A program made the translations under genes and the position numbers. 35,340 nt of DNA from Myxococcota bacterium. GTDB taxonomy: Bacteria > Myxococcota_A > Polyangia > Polyangiales > Sandaracinaceae. Within the stretch, counting starts at the first letter, position 1, and each line of letters starts with the position of its first letter. The notes below the pieces were generated by a model. It saw nothing but the letters and a program-made list of their open reading frames with translations. It was not told the origin of the DNA and searched no databases. Positions 11,907 to 34,531 of this stretch are shown here, in pieces. The DNA is taken from contig JAYZQJ010000252.1 in the NCBI GenBank assembly GCA_036149055.1, positions 1 to 35,340 of the forward strand. The letters are read 5' to 3'.

Positions 11907-12499
11907 CGCGCGAGCTTCACCTTGCTCGTGCGGCGGGCCATCGTCTCGCGCCAGACCGGGACGCCGCTGATCTCGAAGAGAGCCAGCGACACCTGACCGT
12001 CGGCCTCGAGCTCCACCACCGCGACCTGCTCCTTCGACAGCGGCCCCGGCGTGAGGAAGTAGCGCGGGCCGAAGCGGCGCAGCTCGGACGCGGCGCTCTT
12101 GCCGTAGGCGATGAGGTTCGCGTTGGCGATGTCCTCCTCGTCGAGCACGGACTTGTCGTTGACGAAGAGGAGGATCCGATCGGCGAGCATCTCGACCGCG
12201 CGGGTGGGCGGGGTCGGCAGCTTGCGCACCTTGGCCAGCTGCTCGACCAGCTCCCGCCGCTCCAGCAGCGCCTCGATCGTGTCGGGCGTGCCCGAGCGCG
12301 CCTGCTCGAGGGCGTCGGCGAGGAACGCCTCGTCCGAGGGATCGGCGCCGACCCAGTCCCGGACGACCGCGTCCACCGTGTCCTCGTCGAGCCCGAGGTA
12401 GACGGCCTGGTCGACCTCCATGTCGTCGAGCAGGAACTCGATCGCCTCGCGCAGCGTCGCGGCGTCGCCGTCCGACGGCCCGAGGAGACCGATGCGCAT
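11903..12499 (-). CDS. Degenerate YfcE-like metallophosphoesterase-fold protein
   Basis: ATG 12499 (TGATG overlap). Block order MRIGLLG / VYLG / LLFVND / IAYGKS / FLTPG mirrors the calcineurin-like fold, but the metal ligands are missing. Confidence 0.6.
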   Translation of the reverse strand: MRIGLLGPSDGDAATLREAIEFLLDDMEVDQAVYLGLDEDTVDAVVRDWVGADPSDEAFLADALEQARSGTPDTIEALLERRELVEQLAKVRKLPTPPTRAVEMLADRILLFVNDKSVLDEEDIANANLIAYGKSAASELRRFGPRYFLTPGPLSKEQVAVVELEADGQVSLALFEISGVPVWRETMARRTSKVKLAR

Positions 12500-18400: not shown

Positions 18401-19155
18401 GTGCGGGCCGCGCCCTCGTCGAAGTCCTGGCCGTCGCCCGGCGCGCCGAAGGGGTCGAAGCCCTCCTCGGCGTCCTTCTCGAGCGCGGGCTCGCCGAAGA
18501 AGGCCTCCTCGGGCGTGGCCGGAGGCGGCGGGGCGCTGCCGAAGAACTCCGCCTCGGCGTCGGTGCCGGCCAGGGGGCGCTCGGGCGCGGGGGTGGACGG
18601 TCGGCGCGGGGTCGGCGCGCGCACGTCGGACGGGTAGGCGCGCGTCTCCTCGTCGAGGCCGTCGAGGAGCCCGTCGAGGTCGAGGTCGACCGGGGGCGGC
18701 GCGGCGCGGGCGGGGGCGGGCTCGCGCTCCGGCGCCCGTCCGGCGGGCTTGCGACCCGAGATGGGCAGGGGCGGCGGCGGCTTGGTGGGCTGCGCGCCAC
18801 GCTCCTCGTCGGCCGCGTCCTTCCCCACCAGCGAGTTGATCAGCTCCTGCGGGATCGACGCGATGCGCGTCGACTCCATCTCCTCGTCGTCCTCTTCGTC
18901 GAGGCCGGGGAAGTCGTCGAGGTTCACCGGCTTCGGCGGGGGCGGCGCGGGGGCTCGCGGCGACCGCTTCGCGAAGGTGTCGTCGGGCGACGGCGGGCGG
19001 TAGAGGGCGCGCGAGGGCTCGCTCGTCTGCGGCAGCGGCGGCGCCTTCGCCTCGGCGCTGTCGTCGAGCTCCGTCTCCCAGTCCGCGAGCGCGTCGTCCC
19101 ACTCGAGCTCGTCGAGCTCGATCTCGCCAGGCGACTTGTCGTCGTTCTCGCTCAT
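12499..19155 (-). CDS. Giant (2218 aa) TPR protein with long disordered N-terminus and C-terminal M48-like domain
   Basis: ATG 19155 (ATGA overlap); about 660 aa acidic/Pro-rich region, then TPR helices (e.g. YRAALEADPSD, FRRVLKLLPRD), ending WGNRVGLLASG..LLEFAIS. Confidence 0.85.
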   Translation of the reverse strand: MSENDDKSPGEIELDELEWDDALADWETELDDSAEAKAPPLPQTSEPSRALYRPPSPDDTFAKRSPRAPAPPPPKPVNLDDFPGLDEEDDEEMESTRIASIPQELINSLVGKDAADEERGAQPTKPPPPLPISGRKPAGRAPEREPAPARAAPPPVDLDLDGLLDGLDEETRAYPSDVRAPTPRRPSTPAPERPLAGTDAEAEFFGSAPPPPATPEEAFFGEPALEKDAEEGFDPFGAPGDGQDFDEGAARTRMADLSEVARQSAPPEEPQEANEEAEEEPEPRTRMADLSAIAEEAEADAGERPTKPPAAGADEAGTRPTRPPEAGAAGAAKPAFRAPSIPKPSLLKPRIPKPGLTKPGAKPTIPKPGIPRPGGIPKPKGIPRPGGFPKPGLPPKLPTPGKLGLPRPGQPKKPAIAPPAPPPTPPGDLPSELTAEETEPATPERVTPLPAAGLPAAGLPAAGLPAAEPVPPPLPTAEAPTAERPTPVPEAEPTPAAKDDAAKDDAEEEEIAAAQTPPTPTGPRKPAFESAELDMGLAELDALIESEIPPPPLPSDDAVEAPAVEAPELELGEPPQDEPEDDEPAIAVAETEEEEDDEPAIAVAEADDDEDELVVESGEVDDEEWAELAEAGELDDEEWAEIEAAEAAEQEAAAAAPDRGALAARRSVRSRKPRQESFPMVGDGPEAMRLRMRLLRDLAESKEGPVRARLLVGAAELAEQLGEGEDARDGYRAALEADPSDVVALRALRRDAVLREAWDEVAASFEKEAALPLSAWERALAWTGLAELKLGRLEDPEGAEAAASKALEAQPLSVTATILLAEARWRQGKTREAVQPFAAARDVWDDPDGRAALAVEEARALERAGDEAGAREIFAWANEVDPEALDAWFGRARAGSRADSDPRGTVEALATLAAYCGGSLGEAVLTRASRVATRLANDPQLGVRLLGQATGVVPLQARADAAAATGDRELEREALEAWSGAAGGTDRALALVRMAEVKAAAGDLDGADAALRDAALADGSLGTIRVVREVIARRSGDVSRLVDATQSGGALASAARVARDRGAVARERELLAQASQDGVALVSVDVLTLDAAANDGDDAAIDLGLRRQADRVPPEQRAGSLLALTERAVGREDLEAAYALLEEARQVASGDPLALRPLGRLALQRDATAAAALWMEEASVSDGARSAFCATQAGRILTTAGGDALGAFRRALDAVSGYGPAAWALKPLAVELGDPLTLGEAHEQLAEAAVDPTDAASHLVRGALLRADADPSGAGALLDRARQLAPGDGVLQSLLMRLAGSTSPAERAAMLTESAASAPAELARVYRLQAAAAYEDAGDPAAAAEQLKAVATEHADDPIVRVALDRVEIAAGAVARVAERRFAAVKEAADDEARVFALERLAELDRLERNDPASAVLSLQSILETAPGHLPSLRALFRYFAEHGRLEDLGRVTEALALHVQGGADVTAHLRLARRLAYADAEAPGESADDVLIEAGKRAELDLWLAPRVLAAARERGEAGLARKAAAALASALSSPDERASARVRAAELTSDAETKESILREAVQSSPQHPTAAEALARACVARGDDAAAAEALEAAAKATEVRGRAAALLDEAAKLWDEKVGDAARARAALELASERDVTHGDVFTRLQGILETAGDRERLAQLLGARISAGGEPAELVALYLEQAELRKSISDVTGAKASLRSALGLEPERIEALRDLAELCLEDEDWRGAAEVLIRIARIRKEREELRWVFFTLGDIYDQHMPDPRRAEAAFRRVLKLLPRDVPAMERLAKLYEREGQLENAAQMLAQLAQLDVDPDSNRGHRLQLAAVHERLGDARKAEQVLDEARKNAPTDLGVLKGLADFYDRQGASNALAMHLGRAVNDFRHALEADLGDAAAWPGLVEILQWRGQTDAAACAASAAQAVGVMDVEMSKLVDARGAAQGVGQAAAKSDLDELLAPPALNAPTRAVFKLAGDALEKALPFDVAAYRAQKVDGRDTSIRPLANEVSRWFGFGAYELYVTSAAPRVCVPVHSNPCTLLIGSELIGITDDREKLFVLARAFRIAKAQLSVVVRAQPHEVNALLGGLVQSYDPHHAPAGVDPSHLAEAARRVSKHVNRKVRDELGPLVYEMAGRPGYDPAGLAMAASEWGNRVGLLASGSAPAGISALAKLSGERELPADTPARLALVTRFPEASALLEFAISDAHFEARRRSGIG
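17768..17812. repeat. In-frame 15-bp tandem repeat x3 (LPAAG)
   Basis: CCGGCCGCGGGGAGT in three perfect copies, plus an adjacent partial copy. Confidence 0.85.
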
Positions 19156-22100
19156 TCGGCCAGACCCAGCTTCTTTCGGAGACCCAGCGTCACGGGCGAC
19201 AGCCAGAAGAGGAGGAGCTCGCGCGCGTCGATCGACGACGTGACGCCCTCCCGCGTCGGCGGTCGGCCGAGCACGCGTGTCAGTGCGGTGTGCAGATCGT
19301 TGGAGGCGAGCAGGCCGGCGCGCTGCGCGGTCCGGGTGAGCCGCCGGGCCCACTCGTCGACCCGCTGGCCTCCCTCGAGCGAGGCCAGCTTCTCGGGCAG
19401 CGACTTGCGCACCCGGCGCGGCATGGCCTTGTAGATGCGGCGCGTCGTCTCCTCGAGATCGCGCCCGGCTCCGGCCTGGAGCGGCGCCTCGGCGGCCGCC
19501 GCCGCCGCGAAGATCGCGAGCGCCGCGCCCTCGGCGCCGCGCCGGACGAAGGGGGCCACGCCCATGCGCACGCCCGCGGCGAGGTAGCCGAAGGTGTAGC
19601 GTCGATCCGGCGTCAGCGGAGGGGCGACCTGGCCACCCGCGGTCCAGCTGAGGTGGCCCTTGTAGTGCGGCATCACGTCGAGGCGCGCCGGGTCGTCGCC
19701 GCCGCGGTAGAGCTCGGCGGCCGGCAGCCCGAACACCGCGCCGAGCGAGCCGAGCTCGGTCTTGAGCGGGTCGTCGCCCTTCACGAGGTCGCCGCGCCCG
19801 AGGCCGAAGCCCGAGGGCTCGAGCCCGTCCATCTCGGCGGCGCTCTCCGAGAGCAGCCGGGCGAGCTGGAGCACGTCGCCGCCGTCGCCGCGCACCCGGA
19901 TCGCGTCCAGCTCCTCGGCGCTGAGCGTGCCTCGGGCGGCCCGCGCGAAGTGCTGCGTGTGCTCGGCGTACGCCTCGCGCTCCGCCTCGTCCGCCTCGCC
20001 GAGCACGACGAGCGCCGCGAGCAGCGTCGCGTCGAACCCGCGGTCGTCTCGCCACGCGGCCGCGCGTCGCAGCTTGCGGAGGATCTGCGGTTCCGTCGGG
20101 TCGTCGTCGAGCAGCACCCGGAGCGCCTGCTCGAAGCGCTGGCTCGCCTCCACCCGCTCGGGGCCGTCGAGCAGCATCGCGAGCGCCTCGCCCGCCTCGA
20201 GGTCGGTCGGCGACGCCGCGAGGGCGCGCTCGTAGGCCTGCACCGCCGCGTCCCGATCGAGCCGCTCCTCCGCGTGGATGGCGCCCGCGCGCCGCTCCAG
20301 GCGGGCCACCGCCTTGGCGGAGCTGGCGTGCTCGACCGCGTGGGCCAGCGCCGTCACCGCGTCGTCGTGGCGGTCGATCTTCACCGCGACGTCGGCCATG
20401 CGCTCGTAGATCTCCCGGTCCGCCAGGCCGATCTCGTGCAGCGCGTTCAGCTCGTCGAGCGCGCCCGCGGCGTCGTCGAGCTTCTTCTCGAGGAAGTCCG
20501 CCGCCCCGAGCCGCGCGATGCGGCGCTGGCTGTCGGGCACGTCCGGCGCGGCCGCGAGGCTCTGGAGCGCGTGCACCGCGCCGCCGAAGTTCTCCTGCTG
20601 CACCTGCAGCTCCACCAGCAGCGCGAGGCCGCCGACGTGGTCGCCGTCGAGCATCAGGAGGTTGTCGAGCGCGGAGAGCGCCTCCTCGCGCAGCCCCACC
20701 GAGCGCAGCAGCCGCGCCTGCTCGTAGAAGAGCTTCACGAGCTCGGACGGGTCGTCGACCAGCTCGATCCGGTTGCTCACCAGCTCGAGCAGGCCCGCGT
20801 CGTCGTCCCGCTCGGCGAGCAGATCGTGCAGCCGCCCGTAGGCGATGGGCCGCCGCGCGTCGATCGCGAGGATGCGGCGGAGCCGGCGCTCGGCGCGCGC
20901 GTCCTGCCCGAGCTCGTCCATGAGGGTCGCGGCCGACTCCTCGAGGAGCAGCATCCGCAGCTCGTCGTCGGTGACGATGTGCGCCAGCCGATCGCACGCC
21001 TCGACCAGGGGCTCCCAGGCCTCGCACTCCCGGGCCGCGACCCGGATGGCCTCCCAGCTCGCGAGGTCCTCCGGCTCGCTCACCGCGACCTTGAGGAGGA
21101 CCCCGAGGGCCTCGCGCGGCTGCCCGGCGGCGGCGAGCGCGCGCCCGTGCGCCGAGGACAGGGTGGGCCCGGCGGCGGCGTGCGTGGTCCAGGTGCCGAG
21201 CGCGGTCGCGCGGCCCTCCGGGTCGTCTCCGGCGCCGAGGGCCTCGTCCATCGCCACCGCGGCGGCGAGGGACTCGGGGGCCTCGCCGAGCACCTCGTGC
21301 GCGAGGATCACCGCGTCGTCGAGGGCGTCCTCGCCCGCGTTGAAGACCTGCCCTCGCAGGGCGTGCAGCAGCAGCTCCGCGGCCACCTCGGGATCGTCGG
21401 TGGCGCGCCCGAGGGCGAGCCAGGCGTCGGCCCGCTCCGCGGCGCGCTTCGGGTCGGTCGCGAGCAGCTGGAGGCGCCCGAGGGGGCTCCAGCGGTCGGA
21501 GGGCGCCCGCTCGGCGAGCTCGTCGAGCAGCTCCTCGGCCCGCGCGAGATCGAGGTGGCCGTCGAGGGCGACGCCGGCCGCCTCCCGCAGGATGCCGCGG
21601 CGGGCCTCGTCGCTGGCGTGCGCGAGCATGCGGGAGAGGCCCATCAAGCGCGCCTCGCGGTCGCCTTCCGTCGCCGGGAGGAGCGCGAGATCGACCGCGG
21701 CGTGCAGCCCGACGGTCTCGCTCTCGAGCGCGGTCCGGAGCGGCGCCTCGGCCCGCTCCGGCTGGCCGCCGAAGAGGTCGTAGTGCTCGCCGAGCGCGAG
21801 GGTGTGTCGCCCCGGCTCGCCGGCCGCGATCTCGCGCTCGCTCAGCGCCTCGAGCGCCGCGAGCAGCATCGCCTGGTCGCCCCGCCCCTCGGCGAGGCGC
21901 CGCTTGGCGAGCACGGGCGCGAGGGAGGTCGGGTCGCGCTGCGCGGCCTCGTCGTAGGCCTGCGCCGCGTCCTCGAAGCGGTCGGCGGCCTCGGCGGCCG
22001 CGCCCGCGAGCAGGAGCCGGGTCTCGGCCGCCCGCGGCGCGTCGGCCTTCTCGGCCGCCTCGCGGAGCAGGCGGACCAGCTCGTCGGCGTCGCCACGTGC

Positions 22101-23954
22101 CCGCAAGACCTCTTCCAGGAGCGCGGCGGCGTAGGGGTGGGTGGGTGAGCGCTCGAGGGCCGCCCGCAGCGTCTCCACCGCCTCGTCCTGGCGGTCGGCG
22201 CGGGCCTCGGCCCGGGCGGCCGCGCAGAGATGAGCGGCGGCCGTCTCGGCGTCGGCGGCGCGCTCGGCGAGCGCGTGATGGGCCTTCGAGAGGAGCGCGT
22301 CGTCCCCCCGCGTCGCCGCGATCAGGCGCGCCAGATCGGGCGCCCAGCGGGCCGCGGCCGGGGTCTCGAGCGCCTGCTGCAGCACCGCGTCGGCCGCGTC
22401 CGCGTCGTCCAGGACGACCCGGGTCAGCTCGTGCAGATCGCGGAGCATCGCGCTCCGCTCCTCGTCGTCGAGCTCGGTCGCGAGCAGCGCGCGGACCCGG
22501 CGGACGGCGCCCTCGGCGTCGCCCAGGGTCATCGCCGCGGCCAGGCCCTCCCTCAGGATGGCGTCGACCGCGACGCGCTCGTCCTCTCCCGCGCGGGCCG
22601 CCTCGGCGGCGCCGGCGTAGAGCGCGCGCGCCTTGTCGGCGTCCTTCAGCGCGTAGGCCGCGAGGTGCGCGGCCTCCCAGAGGCGCTGCGCCCGGGCCGC
22701 GCCGGCCACCTCGGCGGCGCGCGCCTCGAGCTGCTCGACCACGCTCGCGTGATCGCCGCCCGCGCGGAGGAGGTCGTCCACCATCGCGGCGGCGACGGCC
22801 GAGCTCGGATCCGCCTCGAGCGCCCCGCGCATCTCGACCAGCGCGCGCTCGGCGTCCCCGCCGGCCTGGGCGCGCTCGGCGAGCCGGAACCGCAGCGCGG
22901 CCGCCGGCGGGCCCTCCACGCCGGCCTCGAGGAGACGCTCGGCCTCCCGGGCGGCGCCCTCGACGTCTCCGGCCAGCTCCTGCGCGAGCATGCGCTCGCA
23001 GCCGAGGAGCGGGTCGGCCTCGCGGAGCTGCGTGGCCTCGTCGTAGTCGTGCACGGCGCCGGGGGCGTCGTTGAGCTTCTGGAGGCGGAGACGCCCGGCC
23101 TCTCGATAGAGGGCGGCGGCGGTCGCGGCGGCGCGCGACTGGTCGGCGAACCGCTGCACGCTGTACGCGCCGGACGCCTGGCCGGCGTTCTCGCCGCGGG
23201 CCTCGGCCATCGCGAGCTTGGCGCGCCCCTCGAGCGCGACGATGAGCTCGGGGTAGCGCTCGGCCTTGCGCGCCACGCGCTCCAGCTGGGTCAGCACCCG
23301 CCAGCGGGCGGCCGGCGTGGTCACCGCGCCGCGCAGGGTCGAGAGCGCGCCCTCGAGGTCCCCGGCCTCCTCCTTCGCCCACGCCACCTCGAGGCGGAGC
23401 AGGGTGGCGAGGACCGGGTCCTGCACCAGGTCGGCGCGGGCCTCGATGATCTCGAGCGCGCCCTCGACGTCGCCGTCGACCAGGCGCTGCTGCTCGAGGA
23501 GGAGCGCGAGGTCTCCCGCCTCGCCCGCCTGCTCGAACGCGGCCTCGAAGAGCTGGCGCGCCTCGTCGAGCTCGCCGAGCTGATCGGCCATCAGGACCGC
23601 CCGATCGGCGAGCGCCGAGGCGGCCTCCCGAGGCGAGGTCGCGCTGCGGGCCTCGGCGTCGTAGAGGCGCAGCAGGTTCTTGCTGGAGCGCCGACGCTCG
23701 AAGATCGAGACCAGCGCGATCAGCGGCGGCCGGAACTGGGGATCGAGGTTGTAGGCGCCGAGGTACTCGCGGACCGCCTGCGCCTCGTTCGCGAGGGCGT
23801 GCTGCGTCAGGTGGCCGATCTCGTACTGGATGACGGCCTGACGGCTGCGATCGGGCGTCGCCTCGAGCTCCTGACGCAGCGCTTCGATCTGGGCTTCCGC
23901 GGCGCCGGCGTCGGCCTCGAGGCGCTCGTTCGTGCGGGGCGAAGGAGTGGTCAT
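19152..23954 (-). CDS. Giant (1600 aa) TPR protein with C-terminal M48-like domain
   Basis: ATG 23954; TPR helices throughout (YLGAYNLDPQF, YERALAASPTD); ends TAQRAGLLASND..ELLLFWLS..LRKKLG. Confidence 0.85.
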   Translation of the reverse strand: MTTPSPRTNERLEADAGAAEAQIEALRQELEATPDRSRQAVIQYEIGHLTQHALANEAQAVREYLGAYNLDPQFRPPLIALVSIFERRRSSKNLLRLYDAEARSATSPREAASALADRAVLMADQLGELDEARQLFEAAFEQAGEAGDLALLLEQQRLVDGDVEGALEIIEARADLVQDPVLATLLRLEVAWAKEEAGDLEGALSTLRGAVTTPAARWRVLTQLERVARKAERYPELIVALEGRAKLAMAEARGENAGQASGAYSVQRFADQSRAAATAAALYREAGRLRLQKLNDAPGAVHDYDEATQLREADPLLGCERMLAQELAGDVEGAAREAERLLEAGVEGPPAAALRFRLAERAQAGGDAERALVEMRGALEADPSSAVAAAMVDDLLRAGGDHASVVEQLEARAAEVAGAARAQRLWEAAHLAAYALKDADKARALYAGAAEAARAGEDERVAVDAILREGLAAAMTLGDAEGAVRRVRALLATELDDEERSAMLRDLHELTRVVLDDADAADAVLQQALETPAAARWAPDLARLIAATRGDDALLSKAHHALAERAADAETAAAHLCAAARAEARADRQDEAVETLRAALERSPTHPYAAALLEEVLRARGDADELVRLLREAAEKADAPRAAETRLLLAGAAAEAADRFEDAAQAYDEAAQRDPTSLAPVLAKRRLAEGRGDQAMLLAALEALSEREIAAGEPGRHTLALGEHYDLFGGQPERAEAPLRTALESETVGLHAAVDLALLPATEGDREARLMGLSRMLAHASDEARRGILREAAGVALDGHLDLARAEELLDELAERAPSDRWSPLGRLQLLATDPKRAAERADAWLALGRATDDPEVAAELLLHALRGQVFNAGEDALDDAVILAHEVLGEAPESLAAAVAMDEALGAGDDPEGRATALGTWTTHAAAGPTLSSAHGRALAAAGQPREALGVLLKVAVSEPEDLASWEAIRVAARECEAWEPLVEACDRLAHIVTDDELRMLLLEESAATLMDELGQDARAERRLRRILAIDARRPIAYGRLHDLLAERDDDAGLLELVSNRIELVDDPSELVKLFYEQARLLRSVGLREEALSALDNLLMLDGDHVGGLALLVELQVQQENFGGAVHALQSLAAAPDVPDSQRRIARLGAADFLEKKLDDAAGALDELNALHEIGLADREIYERMADVAVKIDRHDDAVTALAHAVEHASSAKAVARLERRAGAIHAEERLDRDAAVQAYERALAASPTDLEAGEALAMLLDGPERVEASQRFEQALRVLLDDDPTEPQILRKLRRAAAWRDDRGFDATLLAALVVLGEADEAEREAYAEHTQHFARAARGTLSAEELDAIRVRGDGGDVLQLARLLSESAAEMDGLEPSGFGLGRGDLVKGDDPLKTELGSLGAVFGLPAAELYRGGDDPARLDVMPHYKGHLSWTAGGQVAPPLTPDRRYTFGYLAAGVRMGVAPFVRRGAEGAALAIFAAAAAAEAPLQAGAGRDLEETTRRIYKAMPRRVRKSLPEKLASLEGGQRVDEWARRLTRTAQRAGLLASNDLHTALTRVLGRPPTREGVTSSIDARELLLFWLSPVTLGLRKKLGLAE

Positions 23955-24070: not shown

Positions 24071-24880
24071 TCACTCTTCTCGGGCGACCTCGCCGTTCAT
24101 CCACCGGACCGCGAAGGCCACCCCCTCGGCCAGCTCGAAGAGGGTGGCCCGCGCCCGGCCGACCTCCCCCCGTCGGCAGGTCCGCTCCCGCTGGAACGCC
24201 CGCCCGATGTCGGGGAAACGTCGGCTGTCGTAGTCGGGCTCGGTCCACCGCACCCAGGCACGCGCTCCGTCCCGCTCCAGGGGGGCGCGGCGCTCGATCC
24301 GCCGGGGAGGGCGGGCCGACTCGTGCTCGGCGAGGTGGAAGGCGGTGCACGACGAGAAGCCGCAGCCGAGCAGCAGCACCCTGGCCCCGAGGCGGCGGAG
24401 GTGCCCCAGCGGGCCCGTCGGCCCGAGCGAGTCGGTCAGCGGGTGGTCGGCCACGATCGCGTCGGCCTCGGGCCCGAGGGCCACGAACGAGGTCTGCGGG
24501 TGGAGGCTCCGCCGCGCGCCGTCCAGCGTCCGGAGCAGCTCCGGGACCACGCCGACCCGGAAGCTGGGCCACGCGTCGGGGCGCCAGCCGGGCATCTCGT
24601 CCCGGAGCGCCGGCCACCAGGCCTCGGGGACCGGCGGGTTGGTCCACTCGACCGGGTCCGAGCAGTCGGCGCTGAAGGTGGGCGCCACCAGGGTCCCGCG
24701 GGGCCCCACCGCGCGGCGGAGCGCGGTGACCACCCCGGTCGCCCCGCCCACGACCATGGAGCCGGGGCCGCTGAGCGCCGACAGCGAGGTGTGGACGAGC
24801 AGGACGTCGCCCTCGGTCACCCCCAGCGCCGCGAGATCTCGCGTGATCGCGCTCGGGGTGATGGGCGGCGGCCGCCTCAC
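24071..24880 (-). CDS. AAC(3)/YokD-family (Antibiotic_NAT) N-acetyltransferase
   Basis: GTGA overlap with hut[42 protein letters not shown]...CTAFHLAE. Confidence 0.88.
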
Positions 24881-26427
24881 GCCAGCCGTCCGGTCGCCTT
24901 CTCCGCGGCGCGGACCAGCGCGCCCTCGCGCAGCATCGCGGTGGTGGCGTCGATGTCGACGTGGAGCGGCCGGTCGCGCTCGAGCGTCGGCACCCGCTCG
25001 CGCAGCGCGAGGTGCGCCTCGCGGACGCCGGCTCCGGGCTTCAACGGCGCGCGCAGATCGAGCCCCTGCGCGGCGACCATGCCCTCGATCGCGAGCACCT
25101 GGCGCACGTGATCGGCGACGGTGCGGGCCTTGCGCGCCGAGATGCTCCCCATCGAGACGTGGTCCTCCTTGCCCGCCGACGACGGGATGGAGTCGACGCT
25201 CGACGGGTGACAGAGCACCTTGTTTTCGCTCACCAGCGCGGCGGCGGTGACCTGGGCCATCATGAAGCCCGAGTCGAGCCCGGTGTGCGGCGCCAGGAAC
25301 GGGGGCAGGCCGCTGCTCATCGCCGGGTTCACCAGCTGCTCGATGCGCCGCTCGGACGCGTTGGCCAGCTCGGCGATCGCGATGGCCGCGGTGTCGAGCG
25401 CGATCGCGAGCGGCTGGCCGTGGAAGTTGCCGCCGCTGATCACCTCGCCGGTCTCGCTGAACACGAGGGGGTTGTCGGTGGCGGCGACGATCTCCCGCTC
25501 GAGCACCTGCCGGGCCCAGCCGAGCGCGTCGCGGGAGGCGCCGTGGATCTGCGGCATGCAGCGCAGCGAGTAGGGGTCCTGCACCTTCTTGCAGTCCCGG
25601 TGGCTCTCCATGATCTCGCTGTCGGCGAGCAGGCCGCGCAGGTTCTCGGCCGTCAGCGCCTGACCGGGGTGCGGTCGCACCGCCTGGATCCGAGCGTCGA
25701 AGGGCCGGACGCTCCCCTGGAGCGCCTCGAGGCTCATCGCGCCGACCACGTCGGCCTGGGTGCACAGCTGCTCGCCCTCGACCACCGCGAGCGCGCCGAC
25801 CGCGAGGATCAGCTGGGTGCCGTTGATCAGCGCCAGCCCCTCCTTCGCCTGGAGCACCAGCGGCTCGAGCCCCACCGCCGCCAGCGCCTCGCCCCCCGGG
25901 AGCGCCCGACCCTCGAGATCGGCGCTGCCCTCACCGATCAGCACGAGCGCGAGGTGCGCGAGCGGCGCGAGGTCTCCCGAGGCGCCCACCGAGCCCTGCG
26001 ACGGCACGTGCGGGATCACGCCGCGGTCGAGCATCGCCACCAGCAGGTCGATGATCTCGGGGCGGGCGCCCGAGCAGCCCATCGCGATGGTCTGGGCCCG
26101 CAGCGCCATCATGCCGCGCACCGCGTCGTGGGGGAGCCGCGCCCCGACCCCGCACGCGTGGCTCCGCACGAGGTTGTGCTGCAGCGTCCGGATCTGGTCG
26201 GCCCGGATGCGGGTCTCGGCGAGCGCGCCGAAGCCGGTGTTCACGCCGTAGACGTTCGGGGCCTCGTCGCCCGCGTCCGCGAGCCGATCGATCACCGCGC
26301 GCGCCTTCGCGACCCGCTCGCGCGCGGCCTCGGGGAAGACGAGCTTCGCCGTCCCGCGCGAGATCGCGACCAGCTCGTCGAGGGTCCACGCCTCCCCGAG
26401 GGGCACTTCGGAGCGTCCGGAATTCAT
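24877..26427 (-). CDS. hutH: Histidine ammonia-lyase
   Basis: [14 protein letters not shown] (His-specific SH), MIO-forming [41 protein letters not shown]. Start 26427 or 26439. Confidence 0.93.
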
Positions 26428-27352: not shown

Positions 27353-27928
27353 TCACAGCTGCTTGTTGGCGTGGTCCCAGTTGACCAGGTTCCACCACGC
27401 CTCGATGTACTTGGGGCGCGCGTTCCGGTAGTCGATGTAGTAGGCGTGCTCCCAGACGTCGCAGGTGAGCACGGGCTTCTTGTCCATCGTGAGCGGGTTG
27501 CCCGCGTCGTGGGTGTCGACGATCTCGAGCTTGTCACCGCTCTTGACCACCCAGGCCCAGCCGCTGGCGAAGTGGCCGCCCGCGACGTTCGAGAACTTCT
27601 CCTTGAACGCGGAGAAGCTGCCGAAGCTCGCGTTGATCGCGTCGGCGATCTTGCCGGTGGGCTCGCCGCCGCCGTTGGGGCTCAGGCTGTTCCAGTAGAA
27701 GGTGTGGTTCCACACCTGGGCCGCGTTGTTGAACACGCCGCCGGACTGGCTCTTGATGAGCTCCTCGAGGCTCTTGCCCTGGAGCGAGGCGTCGTCCTCG
27801 ACCGCCTTGTTGAGCTTGTTGACGTAGCCCTGATGATGCTTGCCGTAGTGGAACTCCAGGGTCTCCTGGGAGATGTGCGGCGCCAGGGCGTCCTTGGCGT
27901 AGGGCAACTCGGGTAGCGTGAATGCCAT
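27353..27928 (-). CDS. sodB: Fe superoxide dismutase
   Basis: AAGGAG RBS; LPELPY, HYGKHH, FNNAAQVWNH (Fe-type AAQ), DVWEHAYY. Confidence 0.95.
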   Translation of the reverse strand: MAFTLPELPYAKDALAPHISQETLEFHYGKHHQGYVNKLNKAVEDDASLQGKSLEELIKSQSGGVFNNAAQVWNHTFYWNSLSPNGGGEPTGKIADAINASFGSFSAFKEKFSNVAGGHFASGWAWVVKSGDKLEIVDTHDAGNPLTMDKKPVLTCDVWEHAYYIDYRNARPKYIEAWWNLVNWDHANKQL

Positions 27929-28186: not shown

Positions 28187-29678
28187 ATGAAAGAAAGTCA
28201 CGAGCAGATGGGCCGCAGGCTCCGCGAGCTCCGCCTCGAGCGGGGGCTCCAGCAGGGCGAGGTCGCGCGCCGGCTGGGGGTCTCGGCCGCGTACATGAGC
28301 CTCATCGAGAAGGGGAAGCGATCGGTGCAGCTGCCGCTCCTCTTCAAGGCGCTCGAGATCTACGGCGTCGGCATGGAGGACTTCATGTCGAGCCTCGGTG
28401 AGGCGAGGGTCGACGACGGGCTCGCGCGCCTCCTCGACGAGCCGCTCCTCAAGACGCTCAACCTCAGCCGCGAGGACCTCGCCAGCCTCGGCGCGGAGCC
28501 CAAGGTGGCCACCACCATCACCGCGCTCTTCAACCTCTACAAGAACACCCGCGGTCAGCTCGACCACCTGCTCGCGGATCTGGCGCGGCGCGAGCGGGAC
28601 GACGCGCGGGAGGGCGGAGAGCTCGCCTTCGACTACTCGCCCTTCGACGAGGTCACCGACTTCCTCGAGCGCCACGGCAACTACTTCCCGTCGATCGAGG
28701 AGCGCGCCGACGCCCTCCGCCGCGACGCCGGGATCGGAGATCAGGTCACCAGCGGCGAGCTCGTCCGGGCCCTCGAGGCCAAGGGCGTCTCGGTGGAGCT
28801 CGTCGGGTCCGACGGCGACAGCAGCGTCATCCGCCGCTTCGATCCGGACGGCGGCAGCCTGCGGCTCTCGGTCGACGTGCCCGAGCACCGCCGCAAGTTC
28901 CAGCTCGCGGTCGCGATCGGGCTGCGGCTGCTCGACGAGGAGGCGCTGCACCGCCCGATCGTCGCCGACCACGTCGCCCAGCACGGGGAGACCGACCGGC
29001 TGCTGAAGATCCACCTCGCGAACTACTTCGCGGGGGCGCTGCTGCTCCCCTACGGGCCGTTCTTCGAGCACGTGACCCGCACCCGCTACGACGTGGATCG
29101 GCTCGGCTCGATCTTCGCCGCCAGCTACGAGACGGTCGCGCACCGCATCTGCAACCTCGGCGATCCGGAGCGCCGCGGGGTGCCGTTCCACTTCCTGCGG
29201 GTCGACGTCGCCGGCAACATCTCCAAGCGCTACTCGTCGACCGGCCTCAAGTTCCCGCACGGGACCGGCAGCTGCCCGAAATGGGTCGTGCACACCGCCT
29301 TCCTCGCGCCGCACGAGATCCATCGGCAGTATTCGGAGTTCCCCGACGGCTCACGCTACTTCTGCTTCGCGCGGGTGCAGGCCGAGCCGCACCGCGGATC
29401 GCTGACCCGCGGCACCGTCTACAGCATCGGGCTCGGCACCCACGCCGAGCACGCCAAGCACCTGGCGTACGCCGACGAGATCCCCTTCGTCGACCCGCAG
29501 AAGATGGCGATGCCGGTGGGCACGACCTGCCGCTTCTGCGAGCGGACCGACTGCAACCAGCGCGCGGCGCCGAGCTACAAGTTCGCCTTCCGCGTCGACG
29601 AGTACATCAAGAAGGACAACTTCTTTTCGCCGCTGGTCAGCGACGATCAGGAGCAGCCCGACGTGGACGCCGAGCGCC

Positions 29679-29692
<14 letters not shown>
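28187..29692 (+). CDS. XRE-family short-chain fatty acyl-CoA regulator (ScfR/RamB/PrpR-like)
   Basis: N-terminal XRE HTH; LANYFAGALLLPY, SYETVAHR, VPFHFLRVDVAGNISKR, C-terminal CRFCERTDCNQRA. Confidence 0.9.
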
Positions 29693-31094
<1,402 letters not shown>

Positions 31095-31159
31095 GCTTCA
31101 GGTGGGTCATACGGCGCATGGGGCCTCCGGGTTGAGGGGGAACCTGATACACCGCCCCC

Positions 31160-31723
31160 GTGACGCGCTTCTCGAACCTCTGCGGCGTGGACGACGCCCC
31201 GTTCGCGCGCAGCCACCGCGGCGACGTGGCGATCGTCGGCGCGATCACCACCCGCCGGCGCCTGGACGGCGTGATCACCGGCAAGGTGAGGCGGGACGGG
31301 GCCAACGCGACCGCCCAGGTGGCGGCGATGATCGGGGGCTCGCCCTTCCGGGAGCACGTTCAGGCGCTGGTGCTGAACGGGATCGCGCTCGCCGGCTTCA
31401 ACGTGGTGGACCTGGCCGCGCTCCACGCCGAGACCGGCCTCCCGGTGCTCGTCGTCGCGCGCAAGGCCCCCGACATGGCCGCGATCCGGCGCGCCCTGAT
31501 GCGCCGGGTCCCCGGAGGCGCGAGGAAGTGGCGCCTGATCGAGGCGGCCGGCCCCATGGAGCGGTGCGAGGGGGTGTACGTGCAGCGGGCGGGGATCTCG
31601 GAGGCGGGCGCCGCGCAGCTCGTCCGGGACGCGCGCGTCCAGGGGGCGATCCCGGAGCCGATCCGGCTGGCTCACCTCATCGCCGGCGCGCTCGGCCGGG
31701 GCACCAGCAAGGGCGGCGCGTGA
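31160..31723 (+). CDS. DUF99 family protein (endonuclease V-like fold)
   Basis: GVDDAPF, LDGV...DG.NAT, GIALAGFNVVDL, IPEPIRLAHLIA. Confidence 0.85.
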   Translation: MTRFSNLCGVDDAPFARSHRGDVAIVGAITTRRRLDGVITGKVRRDGANATAQVAAMIGGSPFREHVQALVLNGIALAGFNVVDLAALHAETGLPVLVVARKAPDMAAIRRALMRRVPGGARKWRLIEAAGPMERCEGVYVQRAGISEAGAAQLVRDARVQGAIPEPIRLAHLIAGALGRGTSKGGA

Positions 31724-32475
31724 CCCACCCTCGCGACTGCGACCGCGCTCGACTCCCGGCCGCGCTGGCCGACCTCTTCGAGCCGCTGCCGGCCGATCCG
31801 TGGATCGACGCCTTCGTCGCCGCCGCCCGGCCGCACGGCGGGCTGAAGGCGGCCGCGCACGCCGGACTCCGACGCTTCGTCAGCGACTTCGACGCGGACG
31901 GGCTGCTCGGCACCCACCCGATGGCCCTGCTCGGCGAGGCCTCCTGGGAGGCGCTGGTCGGTCGCGGCGCTCGCCTGCTCGACGTGGGCGCGGGCAGCGG
32001 CGACGTCACCGCCCAGGCCCGGGCGCTCTTCGACGAGATCGTGACCACCGAGACCTCGGGGCCGATGGCGAGGCGCCTCCGGGGTCGCGGCTTCGAGTGC
32101 CACCGCGTCGATCTCGCCCGCGTGCGCCTCGACGAGAGGCCCTTCGACGTCGTCTCGCTGCTCAACGTGCTCGACCGCACCGACCGGCCCCGGACGCTCC
32201 TCCGCGCGGCGGTCTCGCAGCTCGCCCCGGGCGGCCGCCTGCTGCTGAGCGTGCCGCTCCCGGCCGCCCCGCACGTCGATCGCGGCGCGCTCACCGTGGA
32301 TCCGGACGAGCCGATGGCCGGCTACGGGGAGACCTGGGAGGCGGCGCTGGCCGATCTCTGCGCCGATCTGCTCGGCGAGCTCACGCTCGAGCGGCTCGCC
32401 CGCGCCCCGTACCTCACGGTCGGCAAGGAGGGCCTCCGCGCCCTCGACGCCGCGCTGGTCGTCGCCGCGCCTTGA
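31720..32475 (+). CDS. METTL9/DREV-family class I SAM methyltransferase
   Basis: GTGA overlap; GLLG..PM, RLLDVGAGSGDVT, FDEIVTTETS..M, FDVVSLLNVLDR.D.P.TLL, PYL..G, LDAALVV, colinear with METTL9. Confidence 0.8.
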   Translation: MTHPRDCDRARLPAALADLFEPLPADPWIDAFVAAARPHGGLKAAAHAGLRRFVSDFDADGLLGTHPMALLGEASWEALVGRGARLLDVGAGSGDVTAQARALFDEIVTTETSGPMARRLRGRGFECHRVDLARVRLDERPFDVVSLLNVLDRTDRPRTLLRAAVSQLAPGGRLLLSVPLPAAPHVDRGALTVDPDEPMAGYGETWEAALADLCADLLGELTLERLARAPYLTVGKEGLRALDAALVVAAP

Positions 32476-32478
32476 GGC

Positions 32479-32970
32479 CTACGGGCAGAAGACGTCGCAG
32501 ACGGCCGGATCCGCGCAGCTCGGCACGAAGCCCAGGCTCGCGTCGGCGCGGCGGCCCTCGCCGTCCTCGACCGAGACCACGAAGCGGTGCGGGCGGTCGA
32601 CCACCTCCCGGCCGTCGAGCCCGGGGCAGAGCACCATCGCGCGGGGCGCGTCGAGCTCGAAGCCGTCCTCGGTGTCCACCCACGCGATCGGCCCGCGACC
32701 GAGCTGCACGAGCTCGCCGGCCTCGTCGGTGACCCGCCGGTCGAGGGTGGCGGTGTCCGGACAGATGCCGCGGATGCGGGCGTGCAGCCAGACGTGCATG
32801 CCCCCCTGCGTGCCGGGCACGAGGGCCCGGGCGGCGCCGTCGGCGAACGCCTCGAAGCGGTCGCCCGCCTCGGGGGCGCCGCCGATCTCGAGCGACGGCT
32901 CGCCCTCGAGGTCGGCGCAGCGATCCGCGCAGCCGACGAGGAGGGCCGAGAGCAGCAGGAGGGCGCGCAT
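32479..32970 (-). CDS. Hypothetical lipoprotein
   Basis: Lipobox LLVGC; GTQGGMHVW motif; several Cys. Confidence 0.7.
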   Translation of the reverse strand: MRALLLLSALLVGCADRCADLEGEPSLEIGGAPEAGDRFEAFADGAARALVPGTQGGMHVWLHARIRGICPDTATLDRRVTDEAGELVQLGRGPIAWVDTEDGFELDAPRAMVLCPGLDGREVVDRPHRFVVSVEDGEGRRADASLGFVPSCADPAVCDVFCP

Positions 32971-32991
32971 GCCCCGGTGGTACTCCGAACC

Positions 32992-34368
32992 CTACTCGGC
33001 GTCGACCGGGCCGAAGCTCGTGAGGTGGACCTCGCCGGAGTCGTTCTTGCGCCAGCTCTTGCGGGCGAGGAGCTCGCGGAGCGGCGCCTCCCAGAAGAAC
33101 TCGCTCTGACCGAAGGCGGGCTTGAGGTCGCCCATCCAGGTGGCGTTCGGATCGAAGCGCGCGAAGAACGGGCGGTTCACCCAGCTCGGGTCGCGCGCCT
33201 GGATCATCTTCAGCACGAAGACCTTCTCGCCCGCCACCTCGGCGACGCCGTCCACCAGGACCTTGCCCGGCGTGCAGCTCATGCTGGGCCCGCGCACCGT
33301 GCGGCCGAGCCCGGAGATGTGGCGGTAGGCGCCCTCGTAGATCTCCAGCGCGCGCGCGAGCGGCACCTCGAAGTACTGCTTCGGGCCGGTGTCGCGCTCG
33401 ACGAAGAAGTAGTACGGGATCGCGCCGAGTCGCAGCTGCATCCGCCACATGCGGTTCCAGACCTGCGGGTCGTCGTTGACGTGGCGGATCAGGGGAGCCT
33501 GCGTGCGCACCACCGCGCCCGCGCTCCGGCAGCGGCGCACCGCCTCCTCGGCGATCGGCGTCGAGAGCTCCTTCCAGTGGCTGTAGTGGCCCATGACCGC
33601 CACGCTCTTGCCCCGCTCCGCCACCTCCTCGAAGAGGCGCATCAGGTCGTCCGCGTCCTCGCCCTCGACGAAGCGGTGAGGCCAGTACGCGAGCGCCTTC
33701 GTGCCGATGCGCACGCTCTGCACGTGCTCGATGTCGAGCAGCGGCTCGACGTAGCGGCGGAAGACCTTGGTGCGCATCACCATCGGGTCGCCGCCGGTGA
33801 AGAGCACGCTGGTGACCTCGGGGTGCGCCCGCACGTACTCGGCGAGGCGCTCGGGCTCCTTGCTCGCGAACTTCAGGTCCTCGAGCCCGACGAACTGCGC
33901 CCAGCGGAAGCAGTAGGTGCAATACGTGTGGCAGGTCTGGCCCTGCGTCGGGAAGAAGAGCACCGTCTCGCGGTACTTGTGCTGCATCCCGGGGACCGGC
34001 TCGCCGCCGTCGTCGGGGACGTTGTGCGCGAGCTGCCCGGCCGGGTGCGGGTTCAGCCGCATCTGGATCGGGCGCGCGGCCTCGGCCAGCTCCTTCTTGG
34101 AGGCGCCGGCGCGCACCCGCTTCAGCATCGCGGCGAAGTCGTCCTCCGCGAGCATCCCGCGCTGCGGGAAGGTCAACCGGAACATCGGATCCTCGGGGAC
34201 CCGATCCCAGTCGATCAGCTCGTCGATCACGTACCGATTCACGCGGAAGGGGAGCACCGCCGCGACCGCTCGCATGGCGTCGCGTTCGATCTCGGACAGC
34301 CTGGCGAGCTGCGGGATCGCGTCCATGCGGTTGAAGTTGTAGATCTCGAGCTTCCGAGCGGCGTTCAT
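32992..34368 (-). CDS. KamA-family radical SAM aminomutase (lysine 2,3-aminomutase-like)
   Basis: GGAG RBS; HKYRETVL, CHTYCTYCFR (CxxxCxxC), FTGGDP, RIGTK, IPYY, PGK. Confidence 0.88.
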   Translation of the reverse strand: MNAARKLEIYNFNRMDAIPQLARLSEIERDAMRAVAAVLPFRVNRYVIDELIDWDRVPEDPMFRLTFPQRGMLAEDDFAAMLKRVRAGASKKELAEAARPIQMRLNPHPAGQLAHNVPDDGGEPVPGMQHKYRETVLFFPTQGQTCHTYCTYCFRWAQFVGLEDLKFASKEPERLAEYVRAHPEVTSVLFTGGDPMVMRTKVFRRYVEPLLDIEHVQSVRIGTKALAYWPHRFVEGEDADDLMRLFEEVAERGKSVAVMGHYSHWKELSTPIAEEAVRRCRSAGAVVRTQAPLIRHVNDDPQVWNRMWRMQLRLGAIPYYFFVERDTGPKQYFEVPLARALEIYEGAYRHISGLGRTVRGPSMSCTPGKVLVDGVAEVAGEKVFVLKMIQARDPSWVNRPFFARFDPNATWMGDLKPAFGQSEFFWEAPLRELLARKSWRKNDSGEVHLTSFGPVDAE

Positions 34369-34531
34369 CGACTCTCCGGTGAGGGGTTACACGTGCGCCT
34401 GCGGGCACGCGCGGAGGCGTCCCGAGGGGAGATGGGGGCGGGCCCGGTCGAGCGCCGAGGATGCCGAGATGGATGGCGATCACTGCGGGCCCGGGTGGGC
34501 GGACGACGGCGAGGCGCCGACGCGGTCCGTA

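Follow-up and report, generated by a model that had tools for sequence, protein, structure and literature searches.

A myxobacterial member of the DREV/METTL9 family with a conserved catalytic centre and an altered substrate groove: a candidate bacterial protein-histidine methyltransferase

To our knowledge, the enzymes to which protein histidine methylation has been attributed are all eukaryotic, and in the literature searched neither the papers on METTL9 nor a 2026 review mentions bacterial or other prokaryotic METTL9 homologues. Human METTL9, a protein-L-histidine N-pros-methyltransferase, has been solved repeatedly (PDB 7Y9C, 7YF2-4, 8GZE/F and 9VPQ). Its fold consists of a seven-β-strand core with four N-terminal helices around it and long β6 and β7 strands (PMC10308197; PMC12269839); the residue roles used below are those given in these two papers. 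D213 forms a hydrogen bond with N3 of the target imidazole, which leaves N1 to attack SAM (PMC10308197; PMC12269839), and mutation of D151, G153, E174, N210, R214 or Y295 leads to loss of SAH binding or activity (PMC10308197). A small x-pocket formed by R114, N118 and R123 limits x of the HxH motif to small residues, and replacement of R123, D300 or N118 with Ala abolishes peptide binding (PMC10308197). R123 and D300 act as backbone clamps, and Y306 touches the residue before the motif (PMC10308197; PMC12269839). The eukaryotic orthologues tested represent all five supergroups; they differ in specificity but all depend on an HxH site, and the Ostreococcus tauri enzyme (OtMETTL9) makes 1-methylhistidine at HxH (PMC12269839). 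OvoM and OvsM, the 5-thio- and 5-selenohistidine N-π-methyltransferases (PDB 9BXH-9BXN), have a class I methyltransferase core and also methylate an imidazole nitrogen, but their substrates are small molecules.

The gene described here comes from an uncultured marine myxobacterium and lies at 31720..32475 on the forward strand of the window, the whole stretch of 35,340 nucleotides that was analysed. It encodes 251 amino acids from a GTG start to a TGA stop. The surrounding frame, 30901-32475 (+), comprises 524 open codons, with a coding signal only from the GTG at 31720, and a GC3-based gene caller chose 31720-32475 (GC3 = 0.94). Because relatives of 251 to 253 amino acids matched over 99 to 100% of the protein (P0002 with 98% identity, P0003 with 78%), the GTG at 31720 was taken as the true start. 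The first-pass annotation had placed a 251-residue gene at the end of a longer shadow ORF, and the coding signal, the GC3 and the same-length relatives bear this out; this is a real gene. The dN/dS ratio was 0.25 against the same-genus ortholog and 0.25 to 0.46 across five orthologs.

The product is a genuine member of the DREV/METTL9 family. The Pfam DREV profile (PF05219) matched it with about 80 to 81 bits against a cut-off of 26 (E = 9.9e-23, profile positions 52 to 247 of 265), whereas generic methyltransferase models reached at most 50.6 bits (Methyltransf_23 being the best; E = 2.4e-13 or worse). In a phmmer search of the PDB, the top four distinct sequences were all METTL9, from O. tauri and human or other mammals (8bvi, 8gze, 7y9c and 9vpq; E = 3.8e-17 to 9.7e-17), and the fifth had an E value of only 4.4e-4. 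The best solved relative was OtMETTL9 (8bvi, E = 3.8e-17, query residues 13 to 239), and human METTL9 entries followed at 6.4e-17 to 9.7e-17. Atlas neighbours were DREV clusters from Myxococcota, Chlorophyta and Chordata, and automatic public annotation names some myxobacterial proteins "DREV methyltransferase." Searches with NCBIfam returned far-sub-threshold generic matches only (best, 25.8 bits against a cut-off of 175), and PADLOC gave only a weak generic match to mad2 (30.9 bits, core region 80 to 182).

The homology had originally been proposed from a run of ordered sequence blocks. All of those attributed to the window protein are present in its translation: CDRARL..LADLF, DGLLG..PM, RLLDVGAGSGDVT, FDEIVTTETS..M, FDVVSLLNVLDRTDRP.TLL, LP..PHVD, TWE, RAPYL..G and LDAALVV. 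The human counterparts given with them could be recovered for the most part: NGLLGRGSM, RLLDLGAGDGEVT, FEEIYATELS..M, YDVISCLNLLDRCDQP.TLL, LPFHPYVE, NWE and RLPYLCEG appeared in the HMMER alignment to 8gze_A, with CNREKL and LDDAVFV falling outside it. The same proposal had held that the similarity extends beyond the generic SAM core, which agrees with the span aligned to OtMETTL9 and with the structural comparison below. The homology is thus supported by the tree and the predicted fold as well as by the profile and reciprocal searches.

An AlphaFold2 model of the protein had a pLDDT of 96.4 and a pTM of 0.93. With this model, Foldseek ranks 1 to 10 were all METTL9 (TM 0.86 to 0.89, E = 4.5e-23 to 9.6e-20), and the first match outside METTL9 had a TM of 0.56 and an E value of 1.2e-9. 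VIA-align superposed the model on human METTL9 with Z scores of 31.2 to 32.3 and an rmsd of 1.7 to 1.8 Å, aligning 243 to 247 of the 251 residues; the next fold scored 16.5 and was restricted to residues 55 to 251. The DREV domain fold is thus equal over its full length, with model residues 1 to 251 placed against human residues 53 to 317 at 27 to 30% identity, and the superposition on METTL9 that the first-pass annotation had proposed as a check gives a Z score of about 32. Helices were modelled at residues 14-19, 27-35, 41-50 and 56-63, and long terminal strands at 222-235 and 238-250, reproducing the core, the four-helix wrap and the long β6-β7 strands of METTL9. Unrelated methyltransferases aligned with the model only from residue 52 to 59 on. 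In the model, therefore, the protein has the METTL9 fold, including the N-terminal helical wrap that is absent from generic methyltransferases. OtMETTL9 (8BVI), a short single-domain microbial form, is likewise close (Z 28.2, 249 residues aligned). In OvoM and OvsM, by contrast, the core alone aligned (residues 53 to 251, Z 15.2 to 16.4, 13 to 16% identity), and the METTL9-type N-terminal wrap is lacking. Human METTL9 also has an N-terminal signal-peptide region, whereas the bacterial protein is the DREV domain alone, because of which the enzyme would be cytoplasmic.

The SAM site and the catalytic centre were conserved. Residues D88, G90, E111, N149, R153 and Y231 correspond to human D151, G153, E174, N210, R214 and Y295, and D152 corresponds to the catalytic D213; the equivalents of T173, M126 and L308 are also identical to the human residues. 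Among 229 bacterial homologs, the equivalents of D151, G153, D213 and R214 were present in all, those of Y295 and E174 in 228, that of L308 in 227, that of N210 in 211 and that of M126 in 188. The catalytic Asp was found in 28/28 eukaryote-type and 44/44 bacterial rows of the alignment. In the pocket for the first His of HxH (human Y295, M126, C297 and L308), Y231, M68 and L242 are identical and C297 is replaced by T233; OtMETTL9 has Ser at this position (PMC12269839). Two water-mediated SAM contacts were altered, human D156 to S93 and N118 to D60.

The substrate groove was changed to a much greater extent. The small x-pocket of human METTL9 is not found, R114, N118 and R123 being replaced by D56, D60 and T65. 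Neither backbone clamp is retained, since R123 is T65 and the D300 column is a gap, and Y306 is replaced by R240. The β-hairpin that bears D300 is shorter by two residues, and 41/229 homologs share the deletion of the D300 position. Further differences from the human enzyme are G124 to H66, V241 to P179, H245 to A183, Y247 to H185, E249 to D187 and W255 to T192. OtMETTL9 keeps N118, R123, G124, M126, R214, D300 and Y306 (PMC12269839), and the bacterial protein has only M126 and R214 of these. Part of this pattern is general among the bacterial homologs: the R114 position is Asp in 179/229, and the R123 position is Thr in 124, Ala in 40, Met in 22, Ser in 14, Ile in 13 and Val in 10, with Arg outside these six most frequent residues. 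In the tree, the three most frequent residues at the latter position on the bacterial side were Met (18), Thr (13) and Ala (6 of 44), whereas Arg was present in 17/28 sequences on the eukaryote-type side. Because R114, N118 and R123 are D, D and T and D300 is deleted, the target motif of the bacterial enzyme need not be HxH. With an acidic x-pocket (D56, D60, T65) and the shortened hairpin, its preference would be expected to depart from HxH with a small x.

In the tree, bacterial and eukaryote-type sequences were cleanly split with support of 100/98, and the window protein fell on the bacterial side of 52 rows; as the tree is unrooted, it does not decide between a eukaryotic and a bacterial origin, that is, the direction of transfer. 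Within the phylum, the DREV gene was found in the order of the window bacterium only, and the bacterial branch of the family is mainly Polyangiales. A locus search with a single peptide pattern, for which the family range may be wider, gave 47 loci, all from Polyangia, Myxococcales or "delta/proteobacterium" MAGs. Members of the bacterial branch, including the window protein, have the motifs SD[FY]D..G...[TMA][HY].M and PLP..P in common. The window protein differs from most of them in lacking both the D300 and Y306 equivalents, which are Asp in 36/44 and Tyr in 30/44 representatives, respectively, and in scoring about 80 bits on the DREV profile, where most members score 110 to 158; its score was the lowest among 19 phylum-level matches. 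It belongs to a five-member Sandaracinaceae clade (100/99) in which the Asp at the D300 position has been lost, being either deleted or replaced by Ser. Judged by these features, the window copy is a derived Sandaracinaceae form.

Directly upstream on the same strand lies a gene for endonuclease dU (formerly DUF99; 31160..31723, 187 amino acids), for which the PF01949 score was 188.8 bits against a cut-off of 32.7. Its D11, D12 and H172 were invariant in 14 orthologs. D10 and the C-terminal H166 are essential in the Archaeoglobus fulgidus endonuclease (PMC11585767), and D11/D12 and H172 are probably, by position, the counterparts of the archaeal acidic pair and of H166. The methyltransferase start and the endonuclease TGA stop overlap in GTGA (31720..31723, +), an arrangement typical of translational coupling; in loci L012, L013 and L015 the junction measured -14, -14 and +20 bases. 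Metatranscriptome contigs covered 31214-31482, 31550-31791 and 31999-32228, the second of them bridging the junction, at a low depth (2.8 to 5) that could reflect carried-over DNA, and give a weak hint of transcription of the endonuclease-methyltransferase region. The endonuclease gene preceded the DREV gene on the same strand in 7/41 related genomes with four genus codes; the pairing was absent in 19/26 genomes with a strong DREV match, and in 7 of the 14 endonuclease-bearing genomes the endonuclease was elsewhere or no DREV gene was present. In the Sandaracinaceae lineage, the methyltransferase would be made from one operon with the endonuclease. A gap of 65 bases (31095..31159), presumably the promoter region, separates the endonuclease gene from a divergent sigma-54-type response-regulator gene (29679-31094, -). 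A scan of 30900-32700 returned neither a sigma-70-like promoter nor an intrinsic terminator, and inspection of the 65-base gap by eye showed no sigma-54 -24/-12 motif. Farther upstream, and also divergent, is an Fe/Mn superoxide dismutase (SOD) gene (27353..27907, -; Sod_Fe_C, 138.4 bits; Sod_Fe_N, 98.5 bits). Of the 50 loci with a DREV ORF called (8 of 58 loci gave no such call), 27 had the SOD ortholog cluster upstream in the opposite orientation, with gaps of 97 bases to 4.8 kb; the SOD gene is a syntenic neighbour of the DREV gene.

The reading we put forward, at about even chances, is that 31720-32475 (+) encodes a SAM-dependent methyltransferase of the DREV/METTL9 family that methylates N-π (N1) of histidine in a protein or peptide. 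The enzyme would bind the imidazole as METTL9 does and yield 1-methylhistidine, and as far as the residues go protein-histidine methylation in the window bacterium is plausible. Action on a small molecule or on a short non-ribosomal or ribosomal peptide, such as an imidazole-bearing histidine derivative, is unlikely. OvoM and OvsM are among the next structural neighbours after METTL9 (Foldseek E about 1e-9; Z 15.2 to 16.4), the NCBIfam matches included a daptide RiPP methyltransferase (25.8 bits) and the OvoA C-terminal domain (22.2 bits), and the acidic x-pocket could fit a non-peptide substrate. However, the OvoM and OvsM matches are to the generic core only (TM 0.53 to 0.56), the NCBIfam scores are far under the cut-offs of 170 to 175, no biosynthetic genes recurred near the DREV gene in the 50 loci, and the pocket for His(i-2), meaningful only for a two-histidine peptide, is kept. 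Slightly more doubtful is a protein methyltransferase with another target, be it Lys, Arg, an N-terminus or one His without the HxH context. In its favour, the positions with which eukaryotic METTL9 recognizes x and the flanks carry other residues here, and the bacterial branch is set apart by a fully supported split. Against it, the imidazole-orienting Asp and the Tyr that recognizes the first His are fully or almost fully conserved among the 229 homologs, which would not be readily expected of an enzyme acting on Lys or Arg.

It was also considered that the methyltransferase works with the endonuclease in the handling of DNA damage, by modifying the nuclease or by methylating nucleic acid. 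The 4-base overlap, the recurrence of the gene pair (also at L012, L013 and L015) and the RNA-library contig across the junction would fit such a partnership, but the many unpaired genomes and the absence of an H-x-H motif from the nuclease do not, and we regard it as improbable. DNA amino-methyltransferases carry (D/N/S)PP(Y/F/W) at motif IV, unlike the NVLDR found at this position. The invariance of nuclease H172, given that the C-terminal His is essential in the archaeal enzyme (PMC11585767), also counts in favour of this reading; Caenorhabditis elegans METTL9 was earlier proposed to be a DNA methyltransferase, but it has protein methylation activity (PMC12269839). The least likely reading, and a highly improbable one, is that of a catalytically dead protein with a binding or regulatory role. 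Among the phylum-level matches the window copy has diverged furthest, its D300 hairpin residue is missing, Ser and Asp replace D156 and N118, and vertebrate METTL9 is reported to have mainly non-catalytic roles (preprint 10.1101/2025.05.05.652220). Against this, motif I, E111, N149, D152, R153 and Y231 are intact, and the dN/dS ratio stands at 0.25.

Protein-histidine N-π methylation can be extended to a broader scenario, which taken as a whole is rather unlikely to hold. One myxobacterial order would carry out this methylation through its own METTL9 branch, sister to all eukaryote-type METTL9s after a single ancient transfer in either direction, and would recognize a different motif through the acidic x-pocket. 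The gene would sit in a damage-response neighbourhood, coupled in translation to a uracil-DNA endonuclease gene in Sandaracinaceae and paired with a divergent SOD gene across Polyangiales, and histidine methylation would then protect or tune bacterial metal-binding or redox-exposed proteins. Whether myxobacteria and early eukaryotes exchanged genes is debated, and, given a rooted tree, the bacterial/eukaryotic split and the limitation to one order are relevant to that debate. A bacterial branch with an intact catalytic centre offers a cheap and direct route to whether bacteria make protein 1-methylhistidine, and at which motif, and a 251-residue protein without a signal peptide is a compact scaffold for how the x-pocket sets specificity. 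As the window copy is a derived member of the family, the gain from it alone would be modest.

Possible substrates were sought among HxH-bearing proteins. The H[ANGSTC]H motif was absent from the recurrent neighbour clusters (SOD, 27; Endo_dU, 4; peroxiredoxin-like, 8; GMC-type oxidoreductase, 12; the small partner of this oxidoreductase, 11; and an unassigned cluster, 10). Genome-wide, 614 such motifs were counted in 7,983 called ORFs, against 482 to 513 in five shuffles; this mild excess was accounted for by a few His-rich tails and was not taken as evidence. The HxH-richest protein of the genome was a CDF transporter (C70:33114-34064), whose N-terminal tail contains nine of these motifs. 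Its best matches from relatives (30 loci from 29 genomes) did not support it as a substrate by phyletic pattern: genomes lacking a strong DREV match had tails equally rich in HxH (6 motifs in G018, 6 in G002 and 5 in G024), and, conversely, the tails of two DREV-carrying genomes, G014 and G004, had none. Because the HxH tails and the DREV gene were not correlated, the transporter stays a candidate only, and the His-rich tails of metal transporters of the same genome are likewise candidate substrates.

The reading frame ending at position 32475 was open for 524 codons, from 30901, a shadow of the kind expected at 74 to 76% G+C. Its coding part began at a GTG at 31720, sharing the string GTGA with the TGA that ends the upstream ORF (31160-31723), and a caller using third-position G+C selected exactly 31720-32475 on the forward strand (GC3, 0.94). 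Two homologous proteins from other assemblies covered the 251-aa product end to end, P0002 (251 aa) with 98% identity and P0003 (252 aa) with 78%. Nei-Gojobori dN/dS against five orthologs was 0.25 to 0.46, with 0.25 obtained for the same-genus genome G001. The start codon, GC3, and same-length homologs thus upheld the first-pass annotation in placing a 251-aa gene at the end of a shadow ORF, and all nine sequence blocks that it had quoted were found in the translation of 31720-32475.

The window protein scored 81 bits (E 9.9e-23) against the Pfam DREV model (PF05219; cut-off, 26), compared with 50.6 bits for the top generic methyltransferase model in Pfam, and matched no specific NCBIfam model (top match, 25.8 bits versus a cut-off of 175). 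In a sequence search of the PDB, the four highest matches were all METTL9, the eukaryotic protein-histidine N-pi methyltransferase of HxH motifs with small x; the fifth reached only E 4.4e-4. The top match was 8bvi (E 3.8e-17, query residues 13-239), described as the METTL9 enzyme of Ostreococcus tauri (PMC12269839), and human and other mammalian METTL9 entries gave E 6.4e-17 to 9.7e-17. An AlphaFold2 model built with 50 homologs as input had a mean pLDDT of 96.4 and a pTM of 0.93. METTL9 chains filled Foldseek ranks 1 to 10 with this model (E 4.5e-23 to 9.6e-20, TM 0.86 to 0.89), followed by E 1.2e-9 and TM 0.56 at rank 11. VIA-align superposed 243 to 247 of 251 residues on residues 53/55-317 of human METTL9 (Z 31.2 to 32.3, rmsd 1.7 to 1.8 A) and gave Z 28.2 for the Ostreococcus enzyme, whereas the next fold after METTL9 (Z 16.5) was aligned only from residue 55 onward. 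As the model aligned with METTL9 over its full length and with the next fold only from residue 55, the predicted structure includes the METTL9-specific N-terminal helical wrap besides the common SAM core. Hence, profile, reciprocal, and structural comparisons placed homology to the DREV/METTL9 family beyond reasonable doubt, and the proposed similarity outside the generic SAM core was borne out in the predicted fold.

Residues were mapped from a HMMER alignment to 8gze_A (chain index + 52 = human numbering, verified on D151, N118, R123, and Y295), with roles taken from PMC10308197 and PMC12269839 (section 9). Identical in the two proteins were human D151 (D88 in the window protein), G153 (G90), T173 (T110), E174 (E111), N210 (N149), the catalytic D213 (D152), R214 (R153), Y295 (Y231), M126 (M68), and L308 (L242). 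By this alignment, the SAM site, the imidazole-orienting Asp, and three of the four residues in the pocket that receives the first HxH histidine are kept; the fourth, human C297, is T233, and the Ostreococcus enzyme has Ser there (PMC12269839). Among 229 bacterial homologs, the equivalents of D151, G153, D213, and R214 were invariant, those of Y295 and E174 were found in 228, and that of L308 was found in 227. In contrast, the METTL9 x-pocket residues R114, N118, and R123 were replaced by D56, D60, and T65, G124 by H66, D156 by S93, and Y306 by R240, and V241, H245, Y247, E249, and W255 became P179, A183, H185, D187, and T192. Compared with human METTL9, the hairpin following PYL was two residues shorter, leaving a gap at D300, a column that was gapped in 41/229 bacterial homologs and held D in 104/229. 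Human METTL9 lost peptide binding upon R123A, D300A, or N118A mutation (PMC10308197).

Since the x-pocket, D300, and Y306 are replaced or missing, the protein is classed within the DREV family but outside the functional class of HxH-specific METTL9 orthologues. It probably works like METTL9 at the catalytic step, and its sequence preference likely differs from that of the HxH-specific enzyme. It is predicted to use SAM to methylate histidine at N-pi in proteins or peptides, preferring a motif other than the eukaryotic HxH with small x, a prediction that we give about an even chance of being right. Davydova et al., Supplementary Fig. 1 aside, use neither "prokaryot" nor "bacteria" with an evolutionary meaning, and nor do the 2025 METTL9 orthologue paper and the 2026 review. 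A literature search for METTL9 alongside a "myxo" word returned unrelated medical papers only.

Within a sample of 41 genomes (the window's own and 40 relatives), the DREV profile was matched above cut-off in 28 and at E 5.3e-22 or better in 26; in G002 and G034, the match was confined to the generic core. These tallies include G023, which is marked unpublished and without which they become 27/40 and 25/40. In a phylum sample of 401 genomes, 19 had a match at E 1e-10 or better, every one labelled as from the same order or closer, and none of 14 control genomes had a DREV match. The window protein scored lowest of the 19 (80 bits, versus 105 to 158 for all but G001). Homologs were source-named as MAGs of Sandaracinaceae, Polyangiaceae, Polyangiales, Myxococcales, or Myxococcota, with two more labelled Nevskiaceae and Panacagrimonas, and myxobacterial clusters already carry automatic names such as "DREV methyltransferase." An exhaustive search queried with P0076, a more typical homolog, compared 1.84 billion representatives by HMMER and found 1757 proteins with E values of 1e-3 or lower, 165 of them 1e-30 or lower. 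The best 150 of the 1757 fell into two sequence types, one with the motifs S.T..NG..GRG.M and VLPF.PFVE, which includes cricket and Symbiodinium METTL9, and one with SD[FY]D..G..G[TMA][YH].M and PLP..P.

A tree was computed from 80 of 158 rows (fragments and rows of >420 aa were dropped, every second remaining row kept, and eight named bacterial rows added); organism names were available for three clusters only, and the other labels were motif-based. The careful IQ-TREE run gave one 28 versus 52 split (ultrafast bootstrap 100, SH-aLRT 98), with 17/17 GRG-motif rows on one side and the window protein on the other; the tree, being unrooted, gives no direction of transfer between the two sides. 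The window protein's five-row clade (100/99) also included P0003, P0024, and P0033, source-named as Sandaracinaceae MAG proteins, and P0013, named only "SAM-dependent methyltransferase" by JGI. The Panacagrimonas sp. and Nevskiaceae (Gammaproteobacteria) rows, P0151 and P0155, lay within the myxobacterial branch, grouped (100/92) with P0076, whose genome is of the window's order; this could reflect lateral transfer or mis-binned contigs. The bacterial side also has the cluster of P0236, a protein sharing 50% identity with the myxobacterial P0076; among the cluster's members is a Euglena mutabilis transcriptome protein, which could be a transcriptome contaminant or come from a eukaryote carrying the bacterial type.

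Mammalian METTL9 substrates include CDF (SLC30A) and ZIP transporters (PMC12269839). The most HxH-rich proteins of the window's genome (G000) were a CDF (Cation_efflux) transporter (C70:33114-34064, minus strand), whose N-terminal tail, MGHAHAHGHAHGHSHDHAHSHGGHAHDHG, has nine H[ANGSTC]H motifs; an ArsP_1-type permease (C38:26650-28452, plus strand) with His-rich internal and C-terminal runs; and a periplasmic ZnuA. The CDF and ArsP_1-type transporters are analogues of the mammalian substrates, and the analogy is attractive. However, orthologous CDF tails were equally HxH-rich in genomes without the DREV gene (CDF count, 28/40 without G023, one more with it), and the CDF transporter is a candidate substrate only. 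No link between HxH-rich transporter tails and DREV gene presence was found across the relatives, and nothing in the substrate analyses connected a particular substrate to the window protein.

The gene immediately upstream (31160-31723, plus strand) encodes Endonuclease dU (Endo_dU, former DUF99; Pfam, 188.8 bits), a family that cleaves DNA 3' of deoxyuridine (PMC11585767); D11, D12, and H172 were invariant in 14 orthologs. Endo_dU was present in 14/41 genomes (14/40 without G023, which has no Endo_dU match) and lay directly upstream of the DREV gene on the same strand in seven (G000, G001, G004, G008, G010, G014, and G017), the junction being -4 bases in the window, -14 in each of the related loci L012 and L013, and +20 in L015. 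With 7/41 genomes sharing the pair, it is a lineage-specific operon rather than a universal partnership. The neighbourhood set comprised the window and 57 other loci; flanks were limited to 1.5 kb in ten, and the DREV ORF was called in 50 of the 58. A Fe/Mn superoxide dismutase gene (Pfam; 27353-27907, minus strand, in the window) lay upstream on the opposite strand in 27/50 and was the immediate divergent neighbour in 14 (gaps, 97 to 863 bases); a peroxiredoxin-like gene, identified by reading its sequence, was nearby in eight. These neighbours may mark an antioxidant neighbourhood or inherited synteny, which may account for the dismutase pattern given that every locus is from a single order. 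The loci compared showed neither a defence-system nor a biosynthetic context.

At least 50% of the words sampled from 31100-32500 were present in each of 19 DNA runs. These runs, from 11 studies, are seawater, marine, or invertebrate-gut metagenomes, and three of them may be the source sample. One metatranscriptome run contained 43% of the words, and its contigs covered 31214-31482, 31550-31791 (over the gene junction), and 31999-32228 at a depth of 2.8 to 5; such RNA-library contigs are no proof of transcription. Another, of depth 22, covered 32566-34500, with most of a 163-aa lipoprotein-like ORF of no family (32479-32970, minus strand) and all of the preceding KamA-family radical SAM (aminomutase-like) gene (32992-34368, minus strand), which scored 138.8 bits versus 199 for TIGR00238 and fell under every equivalog cut-off. 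These two genes and the DREV gene are convergent, with a 3-base gap between the pair and the latter.

Between the superoxide dismutase and sigma-54 response-regulator genes lies a regulator with HTH, Peptidase_M78 (IrrE-like), and ScfRs domains (28208-29692, plus strand), syntenic in L012 and L015. A gene of the aminoglycoside 3-N-acetyltransferase family (24071-24880, minus strand; PF02522, 253 bits) shares 4 bases with an aromatic amino acid (histidine/phenylalanine) ammonia-lyase gene (24877-26406, minus strand; PF00221, 658 bits), and the lyase gene was syntenic with the dismutase and DREV genes in the same two loci. Two very large minus-strand genes abut, one of 2218 aa (12499-19155) with TPR/ARM-type matches only and one of 1600 aa (19152-23954) with no Pfam match; AT skew at 17 to 19 kb was strongly negative (-0.34).
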